Assembly: GCA_963780185.1 (NCBI GenBank)
Contig: CAWABA010000011.1
Span: 231,402-295,401, forward strand
Direction of reading: 5' to 3'
DNA length: 64,000 nucleotides
Source: Candidatus Bathyarchaeota archaeon
GTDB taxonomy: Archaea > Thermoproteota > Bathyarchaeia > Bathyarchaeales > Bathycorpusculaceae
Positions 58,865 to 61,220 of the stretch are shown here, in pieces; the first letter of the stretch is position 1; every line of letters starts with the position of its first letter. The position numbers were made by a program, and so were the translations under genes. The notes below the pieces were generated by a model. That model saw nothing but the letters and a program-made list of their open reading frames with translations, ran no database searches and had not been told where the DNA came from.

Positions 58865-59095
58865 ATGATCATTCCAGTAAGATGTTTCACCTGCGGCAAA
58901 CTCGTCGGCGACCAATGGGATGAATTCACACGTCGAATCAAAACAGGCGAAAACGCAAGCGACATCCTTGACAGCCTCGGCATAAAACGTTACTGCTGCA
59001 GACGCATGCTTCTCTCAAACGTCGAAATAATCGATGAAGTCCTGCGGTTCTACGAAGAAGCAGAAAAAAGAAAAGAAGCACGCAACTTCTACTAA
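58865..59095 (+). CDS. rpoN: RNA polymerase subunit N (Rpo10)
   Basis: [21 protein letters not shown]. Confidence 0.97.
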
Positions 59096-59208
59096 ACCGC
59101 CTTTTTAGTCCTAGTTTTTCAGTTAGTTAGCTTCGGCTTTATTCTTCGTTTACCATTGATTGTTCATGCCGGTAGAACGATGTATGGTCAGCCGTTGTTT
59201 TTTACTAG

Positions 59209-59528
59209 TTTTTGTGGTTGGTTTTGGTCACAAATACTAGACCCCCTCCCTCGGGTCGGCTTTTGGGAATCCATTTTTACCTTGGTTTTTTGATGTAAAA
59301 ATGGGGTACCCTCTTTGGTAACAAGTCATTTTTGTGTTGGTTTCTGCTTACAAGTACTAGACCCTCTCCCGTCGGTTTTTCTTTTTTTGTCCCGGCTACC
59401 CTACGGTTTTCTAGATGATCCAAATAGAAGCATCTAGAGGAGGAGCCAAATAGACATAAAAAAGTCTTCTGAGCACCCGTTGTGTGCATGCAACGTCTAC
59501 CCTCCCGGTCTACTAGATGATCCAAATA
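59209..59528 (+). repeat. cluster of imperfect direct repeats downstream of rpoN
   Basis: 59209-59259 resembles 59329-59375 (TACTAGACCCYCTCCC..GTCGG, 120-bp spacing); 59396-59426 resembles 59497-59528 (CTACCCT...CTAGATGATCCAAATA). Confidence 0.75.
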
Positions 59529-59644
59529 TGCCCCAAATATGAAACAACATACTTCAACATAGGGTGAAATCCCGAGGTTTTGACCATGAAAAGACGCTTA
59601 TCAACATCGAAATAGAATGCTGTTTGCCGCCGCTCACGTTGCTT

Positions 59645-60344
59645 TTACAGTTGAATTACCGCGTTTACCAGCGCCACTATCCCAAGCAGAATCAGTATCG
59701 CGGCGCCGCCAATTGAAATCCATTTCCTCAACAGGGGTGCCTTGTTAAGAAGCCAGCCTGTGACGCCTCCTAGGTAGAAGCATCGGTGACAGGGCGGTTC
59801 CTAAACCAAACAGGACGGCTAACCCGACACTGCCAAGCGGCGTTGAAAAAGGCAGTGAGTAAACCAGAAGAGCGATCAAAGGTGGACAGATGATTAACCC
59901 TCTGCCCAAACCCAACGTAAACGCCTTAAAATCAAAGCCGAACCTACCCGCTTTCACAGGTATAGCGAGTTTTTCTCCGTTCGACGCGTTAAATTCGCAT
60001 GGAGACCTTGATTTCAGGACGATGCTTACGCCAATGACCATGGCTAAAATGCCGAAGGCGATGGCAGAGTAAGTTTGGAAAGGCGAAATTGCGGAGTTAG
60101 GGACAACCATTCGGAACAGACCGCTAAACAAACCCACCAAGCACCCTATCAAAGCATAAGCCACTATTCGTCCGCCGTTGAAAATCACCGTTATCGTTAT
60201 GCCTTTGCGGAAGCCGGCGCCGACGCCTGCGATGTAGCTTGCCAAGTAAGGCAGACATGAAGCAGTGCAGACAGCTAATCCGTAGAGCAATCCGCCAGCA
60301 AACGCCGCCAGAAACGGGTTGGAAACTTCAGGTATCAAAGACAT
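59645..60344 (-). CDS. DsbD_2/CcdA-like membrane protein (frameshift near 59775)
   Basis: CTASCLP, GRIVAY, LIICPP, FGLGT; the shifted frame gives a final TM ending in TAA at 59645. Confidence 0.8.
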
Positions 60345-60677
60345 GGAAAGCGCTCAGCAACTTTTAATGAAGCAAGTATTGGGGAGAAGGATTCTTAAAC
60401 CTTACATTGAATCGCCTCAGTATCCGAAACTAAGCTAATGTGCAGTTTTTGAGCATGCGAGGCTTGGAATCGTAAATGCGCGAATACTTACGTTTCCTCC
60501 TTTTTCTGAAAGAATTGCGCTCTTCATGTCAAATTGCGTATTTCATGTTAAAAGCTTAGTGTTTCATTTTTCGGACGGTTGAAGCACCTTTCAATCAGCG
60601 GGATAAATAGGGTAAGAAACAACGCTTTCGCAAGGCAAAACATGGAGTCTATTGCCATGAGATTGTTTAAAACATGT

Positions 60678-60685
60678 TTTATAAA
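60678..60685 (+). promoter_or_regulatory. TATA box (TTTATAAA) of the candidate ncRNA
   Basis: about 25 nt upstream of the 5' strand of the closing stem at 60706. Confidence 0.55.
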
Positions 60686-60705
60686 ACCTACGCCTATTAT
60701 AATTT

Positions 60706-60933
60706 GCGGGTTGGGGAGCACGCTTTAAATGCAAATGCATTGAAGCAAAGAGTGTGTCAATTAAAACAGCGGAAAATTGGCATGCGAAAAAGACTTTGCT
60801 TTAATGGGCTGGGCGTAGCAATGTAGCACTGGAGCTATGAGCGACGTGGTCAAAACGGTGAAAGACCATGAAACGTCAAAGACATGGCTTCAATGGGCCG
60901 TGAAACATTCCTTAAGGCTTAGACCCAACCTGC
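60706..60933 (+). ncRNA. candidate 228-nt multi-helix structured RNA
   Basis: GCGGGTTGGG/CCCAACCTGC closing stem plus four internal hairpins rich in plus-strand G-U pairs; TATA box upstream. Confidence 0.65.
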
Positions 60934-61010
60934 TTAACTCTACTTAAGCAACGTTTTCTGATCCTCCAATAGCCATGCCAATTCATTTCTCGCGTGAGGA
61001 ATTGAACCTA

Positions 61011-61220
61011 TCATATTCTGTTGAAGTATTCCAGAGGCGCATACCAGTAAATGCTAATTGTCTTCCCGCATTCTGGATTTTTGCATTTAACCTTGGCCTT
61101 CACAACATCACCGTGAAAACTGCTCCGTATCGGCTTGTCTGAGGAAAATGCTGTGTGAAGATTGTCAGGCGGGTCAACTTCAAAAGGTTTGTAGCAAAAG
61201 GGACATTCGAGAACGGCCAT
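61011..61220 (-). CDS. small zinc-finger protein
   Basis: CPFC ... CKNPECG. Confidence 0.7.
   Translation of the reverse strand: MAVLECPFCYKPFEVDPPDNLHTAFSSDKPIRSSFHGDVVKAKVKCKNPECGKTISIYWYAPLEYFNRI

Follow-up and report, generated by a model that had tools for sequence, protein, structure and literature searches.

A bulge-helix-bulge-framed RNA gene of Bathyarchaeia that probably yields a small circular RNA and recurs beside a predicted nuclease gene

The stretch of DNA analyzed here, which we call the window, comprises 64,000 nucleotides (nt) of the Candidatus Bathyarchaeota archaeon assembly GCA_963780185.1 (contig CAWABA010000011.1, positions 231,402-295,401), and all coordinates are window-based; handles beginning with G, L, f, g, and C denote genomes, loci, families, genera, and contigs, G000 being the window's own genome, and X1 and X2 are RNA runs. 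The subject is a 660-bp gap between the gene for a DsbD-like membrane protein (59745-60344, minus strand) and a zinc-ribbon open reading frame (ORF; 61011-61220, minus strand), in which an earlier note on this DNA had proposed a promoter-led structured RNA of 228 nt. The gap indeed contains no credible ORF, and the TATA-box-like element TTTATAAA (60678-60685, plus strand) lies about 25 nt upstream of the GCGG at 60706, as had been pointed out, with an A/T-rich box holding this place in 12 aligned homologues whose flanks are otherwise unalignable. When the homologues are aligned with their flanks, conservation starts exactly at 60706 and stops at 60933, and these sharp edges delimit a conserved precursor unit of 228 nt on the plus strand that runs from one strand of an outer helix to the other. 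The plus strand of 60706-60933 has a minimum free energy of -77.7 kcal/mol and a z-score of -4.13, with 1 of 200 shuffles folding as well, compared with a z-score of -1.41 and 21 of 200 shuffles for the minus strand, in agreement with the earlier assignment of the RNA to the plus strand. The segment 60706-60933 is a stand-alone, promoter-led, strand-specific structured noncoding RNA (ncRNA) gene. A run of T at 60954-60957 (plus strand), the position of which is not conserved, is by its sequence a candidate archaeal terminator of the primary transcript.

The gene represents a family of RNAs in Bathyarchaeia without a counterpart in Rfam, and the earlier note had likewise been unable to assign it. 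A search of the whole window, in linear sequence order, against Rfam 15 gave no match at the gathering threshold, and at E <= 10 the region 60400-61100 gave two rows at chance level only, the best sub-threshold row being SNORA27 with 17.9 bits against a gathering score of 64. Signal recognition particle (SRP) RNA, RNase P RNA, and 5S ribosomal RNA (rRNA) are excluded as identities because the genome carries its own copies on other contigs (145.9, 190.1, and 67.9 bits, respectively); the first two had already been set aside in the earlier note for want of their signatures. An H/ACA guide small RNA was also considered and rejected: the strand 3' of each hairpin is a conserved GGGCUG/GGGCCG that is paired to the apical loop, and an ACA box that occurs further 3' lacks conservation and is missing from module 1 of the window's RNA (described below).

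Two covariance models were used to follow the family, R1 built from 12 full-length homologues and R2 from one-module (short) forms of the gene. R1 matches the window's own RNA over positions 1-225 with 231 bits, and BLAST, R1, and a scan for the motif at its ends all find a single copy in the own genome. BLAST gave matches in 19 of 40 relatives, and R1 in 74 of 151 genomes of the order, distributed as 33 of 34 in family f11, 19 of 19 in genus g16, 20 of 20 in genus g30, and 2 of 25 in family f6. One genome of f6, G092, which consists of a single contig, carries a two-module RNA close to that of the window (224.9 bits), and the family is otherwise without both the RNA gene and the neighboring gene discussed below. 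In a class-level sample, R1 matches 25 and R2 26 of 151 genomes, and in the phylum sample R2 matches none of the roughly 131 genomes from other classes. Scanning the contigs of named genomes for the pattern gave 30 matches, of which 26 are titled Bathyarchaeia or Bathyarchaeota, two are titled "uncultured archaeon," and two are bacterial and were unconfirmed by nhmmer. A single pattern match on a viral contig lies inside an ORF, is negative with the covariance model, and was rejected as a chance match.

The ends of the unit form a bulge-helix-bulge (BHB). The outer (terminal) helix, a pairing already seen in the earlier note, joins GCGGGTTGGG (60706-60715, plus strand) to CCCAACCTGC (60924-60933, plus strand); it is present and covaries, and in A4, an alignment of 32 one-module sequences from several orders, 10 of its 10 bp have changed on both sides. 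The central 4-bp helix is formed by GAGC (60716-60719, plus strand) and GCUU (60917-60920, plus strand), is paired in 128 of 128 cells of A4, and lies between the bulges ACG (60720-60722, plus strand) and AGA (60921-60923, plus strand), and the inner helix CUU/AAG is short and 88.5% paired. The full frame, consisting of the 10-bp outer helix, the 4-bp helix, and the two 3-nt bulges, is found in at least 80 of 89 unique homologues. PMC7714728 defines a BHB as a helix of 4 bp with a 3-nt bulge at either end, one on each strand, and with further helices flanking these, and the terminal stem and internal loop of 60706-60933 have this same architecture. A BHB scan of the own genome returned 13 candidates. 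None except the window's RNA is a member of the family, and the best of the remaining ones (C3:62144-62359) falls inside an ORF. The canonical cut in a BHB falls after the second base of each bulge, and the predicted cuts here are thus 60721/60722 and 60922/60923.

Contigs assembled from RNA join the sequence at precisely these positions. The contigs are Logan assemblies of X1 and X2, two runs from two studies labeled as soil and freshwater metatranscriptomes, which were the only runs found to contain the RNA. In both runs, ...AAGGCUUAG is fused directly to GCUUUAA..., which joins G60922 to G60722, and the position of the junction is unambiguous because the DNA base before 60722 is C. The contigs of both runs also have back-joints that lead from 60908 to 60722 through an insertion reading CTTTAAGGCTTAG or a variant of it, 31 contigs of X1 have ...CTTTAAGGCTTAG immediately 5' of 60722, and variant junctions fuse ...GCCTCAG to GCTTTAAACGCG and ...CTTAAGGCTTAG to GCTTTAAATGCG; because variant contigs read different letters at the same joint, the one junction is common to several sequence variants. 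Neither the junction 28-mer nor an 18-mer of it occurs in the DNA of the own genome. The matching contigs of X1 and X2 include 273 at an identity of at least 99% and 1,420 at 95-99%, with the rest lower, and 4,917 contigs of one soil metatranscriptome match the RNA family. Contig depth is 0 in the bins 60500-60709 and 60941-61003 and 0.57-2 in 61004-61066, which is no evidence by itself, and word depths, although they sum to as much as about 1.6 million in X1, do not measure expression. With 60922 joined to 60722 in the contigs, exactly where the cuts are predicted, the most probable mature form is a circle of 201 nt (60722-60922, plus strand) from which both strands of the outer helix are absent. 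The 228-nt unit of the earlier note thus stands as the conserved block, though as a precursor with BHB ends rather than as the final product.

In the proposed pathway, the transfer RNA (tRNA)-splicing endonuclease would cut the precursor between 60721 and 60722 and between 60922 and 60923, and the RNA ligase RtcB would then join the ends into a covalently closed RNA of 201 nt, the junction being what was observed and the identity of the enzymes being suggested by the motif. The own genome has two tRNA_int_endo genes for EndA-type subunits (98.6 and 81.6 bits), both on contig C6 (75058-75297 and 673031-673285), and RtcB is present. Ligation would also cap helix P2 with the loop UUAG; this 7-bp helix (60722-60728, plus strand, with 60912-60918) is nearly invariant and paired in 98.8% of the cells of A1, an alignment of 12 close full-length homologues. 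We consider it likely that the product is a BHB-made circle, and there are several points that weigh against this conclusion. The evidence for circularity comes from assembled contigs of relatives and not from raw reads of this strain, X1 and X2 held only 0.07 and 0.05 of the sampled query words, and a tandem head-to-tail RNA or an assembly loop would yield the same junction, such that contigs cannot prove covalent closure. There is little covariation in P2 and the BHB core because both are almost invariant, and the processing enzymes are proposed from the BHB motif. The RtcB gene itself (G000:C7:221374-222687, minus strand) has a match to the Pfam model that is split into three pieces, each in another frame, and interrupted by one TGA and one TAA; for this broken frame (loci L187-L189), a frameshift, an assembly error, or an intervening element are all possible.

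Inside the BHB frame, the RNA is built from a pseudoknotted hairpin module that is present twice. On A1, the revised fold has 95.7% of cells paired and 19 pairs changed on both sides, none of 500 shuffles is as good, and slid controls reach 28-39%; on A4, 91.8% of cells are paired, 33 of 40 pairs are compensated, again none of 500 shuffles is as good, and slid controls reach 26-46%. Module 1 (60738-60811, plus strand) contains the long hairpin of the earlier note, which is present and covaries, with stem a at 60738-60747/60797-60806, stem b at 60752-60762/60775-60785, an apical loop at 60763-60774, and an internal loop in which GAG lies opposite AAAGAC. The apical loop forms a pseudoknot in which CAGC (60767-60770) pairs with GCUG (60808-60811) on the plus strand, and this helix covaries, with relatives having CGGC/GCCG and CAAC/GUUG. 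Module 2 (60830-60901, plus strand), a diverged duplicate, has stem a at 60830-60839/60883-60892, stem b at 60845-60851/60864-60870, an apical loop at 60852-60863, and a pseudoknot of ACGGU (60855-60859, plus strand) with GCCGU (60897-60901), for which the homologues offer the variants GCAGC/GCUGC, AGGC/GCCU, AGAC/GUCU, and GCGAC/GUCGU. Stem b of module 2 is one of three short hairpins that the earlier note had drawn here, and this hairpin 3 is present and covaries; hairpins 2 (60814-60819/60834-60839) and 4 (60883-60890/60895-60902) and a loop pseudoknot of AAUGU with ACAUU do pair in the window sequence itself, but they are not conserved, with 63% of cells paired on the 12 homologues and 348 of 500 shuffles as good, and the conserved pairing that replaces hairpins 2 and 4 is that of 60830-60839 with 60883-60892.

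Each module has the order stem a, internal loop, stem b, a loop in which AAA is followed by 4-5 nt and then ..GAAA, and finally GGG with 4-5 nt directly 3' of the hairpin, and the two 4-5-nt stretches are complementary and covary, with an ACGG-type variant (ACGG/CCGU) also among the homologues. The pseudoknot helix is 97.7% paired on A4 with 2 of 4 pairs compensated, and it is represented by five pair variants in module 2. The GAG and ..AAAGAC of the internal loop are near-invariant. About 21 bp separate the apical loop from the base of the hairpin, and the internal loop must therefore bend the hairpin back, which suggests that this conserved purine-rich loop probably kinks the ~21-bp hairpin. 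The geometry of the module may be kink-turn-like, to which the sequence fits only partly: there is a GA before stem b on one strand and a GA in AAAGAC before the second strand of stem a on the other, and the bulge would be 6 nt, where a kink-turn has a 3-nt bulge between a canonical stem and tandem sheared G-A pairs that open a noncanonical stem. R2 matches both halves of the RNA (60706-60838 with an E-value of 1.5e-13 and 60804-60933 with an E-value of 1.4e-12), and in relatives with two modules nhmmer aligns one region of its profile twice; the 3' half is a diverged tandem duplicate of the 5' half. The circle would accordingly be composed of the short helix P2 and two tandem, diverged modules, in each of which the apical loop pairs with 4-5 bases 3' of its own hairpin.

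The number of modules varies among relatives, with genes of about 133 nt having one module, those of about 222-235 nt having two, and a gene of 316 nt in G013 (loci L008/L036, G013:C12) having three. Some g16 genomes have one long and up to three short genes, and locus L014 (G015:C18) has two complete RNA genes about 860 nt apart on the same strand. In 22 loci of f11 and f5, the RNA lies between a convergent gene for an ATP-dependent DNA ligase and a divergent gene for a protein of about 210 amino acids, and it is this second gene that recurs in other orders as a neighbor of the RNA, the opposite side being occupied by varying genes. Among 93 unique RNA copies with 900 nt or more of 5' flank, 28 have it in divergent orientation at most 600 nt upstream. 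These 28 come from families of several orders, and the gap between the two genes is typically 83-116 nt for one-module genes.

The divergent neighbor has no Pfam or NCBIfam match, and searches with its sequence against PDB, Pfam, and NCBIfam gave nothing significant, while the ESM Atlas returned archaeal clusters without names only. There are 222 representative clusters related to the protein, and in 51 aligned sequences E71, D81, E94, and K119 are invariant, with H50, G65, E96, T97, R115, Y123, and F130 nearly so. An AlphaFold2 model was obtained with a predicted local distance difference test score of 95.7 and a predicted template modeling score of 0.91, for which Foldseek gave weak rows that are mostly PD-(D/E)xK nucleases. 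With VIA-align, residues 46-202 match 3dnx (Z 9.6), XisH (2okf; Z 9.1), and AF1548 (1y88; Z 8.4), followed by the Can2 and NucS domains, and the best structural matches, at Z 6.8-9.6, are all of the PD-(D/E)xK fold; the three leading Z values are only slightly above the VIA-align background of 7-8. The first three, 3dnx being SPO1766, are PD-(D/E)xK proteins of unknown function that share the core fold over 102-111 residues, and the neighbor protein differs from them in its identity of 12-14% and in an extra N-terminal helical hairpin (residues 1-45). The PD-(D/E)xK superfamily is characterized by an alpha-beta-beta-beta-alpha-beta core with conserved acidic residues and a lysine, which the model and the invariant residues match, and the protein is a predicted nuclease of this fold. 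In the own genome, the protein is encoded on another contig (G000:C1, 228552-229232), unlinked to the RNA, and an 84-aa GIY-YIG-like ORF (L135:2673-2927, plus strand, G000:C1) starts 4 nt after its stop codon.

The loci of the predicted nuclease gene also lead to more distant RNAs. At eight of 20 further nuclease loci there are diverged RNAs of about 140-165 nt that have the same BHB ends and a single long rod-like hairpin inside, and in family f42, which is outside the class, such a rod-like BHB-framed RNA is found at four of four nuclease loci. The rod-like loci are L136-L139, L148, L149, L152, L154, L163, and L182-L184, each with one long imperfect hairpin inside, and those of f42 have an apical ..AUCAAACAGC.. 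loop. These rod-like forms may be the ancestral form of the family. In other classes apart from f42, a sequence-specific scan found no BHB-framed RNA at four nuclease loci of f51, and 16 further nuclease loci gave, outside f42, only a single poor match, L173. In family f24, no RNA adjoins the nuclease gene at five of five loci, and a degenerate BHB pattern gave 16 matches in five genomes, all coding-like, compared with nine in a reversed control. The RNA of f21 does not adjoin the nuclease gene, and all three copies of the nuclease gene in this family (G182, G230, and G250) have one in-frame TGA.

Across genomes, the RNA and the protein tend to be found together. In the order sample, the protein is present in 89 of 151 genomes, that is, in 70 of the 74 that are RNA-positive and in 19 of the 77 that are RNA-negative; the corresponding counts for the class sample are 74 of 151, 24 of 26, and 50 of 125, with the two RNA-positive genomes that have no protein being 85% and 68% complete, and in the phylum sample the protein is present in 59 of 151 genomes, some of them from other classes. 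Together with the recurrent divergent arrangement, these counts lead us to favor, tentatively, the possibility that the circle is an RNA partner (a cofactor, guide, or inhibitor) or a regulator of the PD-(D/E)xK-fold nuclease, ahead of a protein-binding role that has nothing to do with it. In a more detailed proposal, about which we are doubtful, the BHB-made circle would bind, and then program or restrain, a conserved PD-(D/E)xK nuclease of Thermoproteota as a previously unrecognized ribonucleoprotein, with the one to three modules or the rod-like arm as docking sites, and the pair would be ancestral to Bathyarchaeia and at least one neighboring class. Several observations count against such a partnership. 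In this genome and genus, the nuclease gene is on another contig (C1), four RNA-positive genomes of the order have no match to the protein (G092, G106, G070, and G149), and 19 protein-positive genomes of the order, as well as all 27 of family f24, have no detectable RNA. The counts also overstate independence because the genomes are kin, and they are to be read as descriptive and not as tests.

The strongest alternative, which we rate as possible without being likely, is that the circle exists and has a role unrelated to the nuclease, either as a sponge or scaffold for L7Ae or another protein or as a regulator in the manner of 6S RNA or Y RNA, and that the adjacency is an inherited gene order at a shared divergent promoter region. 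This would account for the unlinked genes in this genus and in g16 and for the presence of the protein without detectable RNA in f24 and in other classes, and the conserved GA-rich internal loops do, by inspection, resemble kink-turn-like protein sites. It sits less well with the persistence of the divergent pair in families of several orders, and in one more family that does not belong to the class, next to a changing neighbor on the other side, and with a co-occurrence of 70/74 compared with 19/77.

A linear 228-nt ncRNA acting as a switch, as the earlier note had envisaged, now appears improbable. In this reading, the terminal helix closes a linear RNA and the alternative partners of CAUUGAAGC toggle the fold; such alternative pairings do exist in the window sequence, and covariation of the terminal helix would be expected for a linear RNA too. 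However, the alternative pairings do not covary, the alternative hairpins and the pseudoknot doing no better than the figures given above for the 12 homologues, and the similar segments, including the three partners of CATTGAAGC from which the switch had been drawn, are explained by duplication of the module. The RNA contigs, moreover, join 60922 to 60722 with the terminal helix omitted, and in the great majority of homologues the terminal stem has an internal loop with the exact form of a BHB. Another segment singled out in the earlier note, CATGCCAATT at 60974-60983, is indeed an exact complement of 60775-60784, but it lies outside the conserved block in flanks that are unalignable among homologues.

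Two other readings are very unlikely. The first is that of mobile or repetitive DNA, such as a miniature inverted-repeat transposable element with terminal inverted repeats, or of a tandem DNA duplication that mimics the junction, for which the 10-bp terminal inverted repeats, the 2-4 copies in some genomes, the tandem genes of L014, and the three-module variant could be cited. The own genome nonetheless has a single copy and its DNA lacks the junction, synteny is stable across families, the fold is strand-specific through its G-U pairs, compensatory changes occur throughout the interior, and the sole pattern match on a viral contig is the chance match within an ORF noted above. The second takes the RNA either to be cis-regulatory, as a tandem aptamer resembling a riboswitch, or to be an intron within a larger gene. 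Pseudoknotted single or tandem modules with purine-rich loops do recall single and tandem aptamers, but no co-directional gene follows the RNA here, the downstream genes being convergent in this locus and in the 22 f11/f5 loci, a finding that also led us to reject a riboswitch or leader in a 5' untranslated region (UTR); conservation ends at the outer helix, there is no tRNA or other exon around the RNA (ARAGORN finds no tRNA in the window), and the promoter is directly upstream.

The least probable reading is a dual-function RNA in which a 36-codon ORF (60837-60947, plus strand) is translated. Its ATG and the upstream GGAG exist as the earlier note had described, and close relatives retain MS.VVKTVKDH, but the ORF is not conserved and we judge it to be no gene. 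Of 61 homologues, 26 have the ATG and 19 have a start followed by at least 28 open codons. Close relatives change frame after some 25 codons, diverged lineages have stops, and one-module forms are without the region altogether. The conserved "peptide" corresponds to a loop and stem of module 2 that are themselves conserved. The stop codon is outside the circle, which itself has stops in all three frames and whose length is divisible by three in 25 of 60 homologues.

Circles excised at BHB motifs are familiar from archaea, and those described in PMC7714728 and PMC12558985 include tRNA introns, circular pre-16S/23S rRNA intermediates, and the 5' UTR intron of Haloferax HVO_1309. The window's RNA is similar to these in its motif, in the presumed enzymes (splicing endonuclease and ligase), and in an excised piece that is circular, but unlike the introns and rRNA intermediates, as those texts present them, the putative circle is here the conserved product of a dedicated gene and has a covarying fold, and the "exons" amount to no more than 16 nt of leader plus a short trailer. 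In Thermoproteus, according to PMC4731332, a circularly permuted SRP RNA becomes functional via BHB cleavage and circularization; it is similar in being a functional ncRNA whose mature form is a BHB-generated circle, although it is a permuted member of a universal family, whereas the RNA described here has no Rfam match and a normal SRP RNA is encoded elsewhere in the genome. A C/D box small RNA resides in the circular tRNA-Trp intron of Euryarchaeota in the account given by PMC12558985, and it too is a small RNA released as a BHB circle. As that account has it, this RNA lies inside a tRNA gene, has about 60-100 nt, and carries C/D boxes, none of which applies here.

Two further systems bear comparison with the modules and with the gene pair. 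In the P2 arm of the S-adenosylmethionine (SAM)-I riboswitch, the bend that a kink-turn introduces into a hairpin allows the hairpin loop to form a pseudoknot with one strand of the junction. The module shares with this arm a candidate loop for tandem G-A pairs and an apical loop that is paired at the base of its hairpin, which is a resemblance only, and it differs in having a 6-nt in place of a 3-nt bulge, in being part of a putatively circular RNA, and in having no expression platform and no sign of a ligand. In type III toxin-antitoxin systems, of which ToxIN is an example, the toxin itself cuts the antitoxin RNA, whose repeats of about 36 nt are encoded upstream of the toxin gene and on its strand. 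The RNA is similar to ToxIN in being a pseudoknotted, repeat-built RNA encoded beside a nuclease that it might restrain, and unlike it in having divergent genes, BHB processing, and two genes that are vertically inherited by appearance. With genes that are divergent and an RNA of one to three modules of about 75 nt inside a BHB frame, membership in the type III systems was rejected.

BHB circularization thus has precedents in introns, in rRNA intermediates, and in a single SRP RNA of permuted order, and a dedicated, widely conserved circle gene is not described in the literature searched or in Rfam 15, a search of full texts (supplements excluded) having given no description of such a dedicated folded circular RNA gene. 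The family spans much of the uncultured and globally abundant class Bathyarchaeia, and the recurrent pairing of RNA and nuclease is a concrete entry to the function of both genes. If circular, the RNA would also be a natural example of a compact circular RNA scaffold made from repeated pseudoknot modules.

The other genes near the RNA in the window, which encode the DsbD-like protein, a GDSL lipase, and the zinc-ribbon ORF, give no functional hint. The zinc-ribbon-like ORF at 61011-61220 (minus strand) has 69 amino acids with the pattern CPxC...CxxxxC and no Pfam match, and 10 loci of close relatives have a homologue of it, facing either way, at a distance of 300-700 nt on the downstream side of the RNA. 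A second ORF-free gap of 650 bp (59100-59745) follows the S9 and RpoN genes; Rfam gives no match in 59050-59800, and the gap has internal direct repeats, with two copies of a ACAARTACTAGACCC-like stretch and with CTAGATGATCCAAATA occurring twice.

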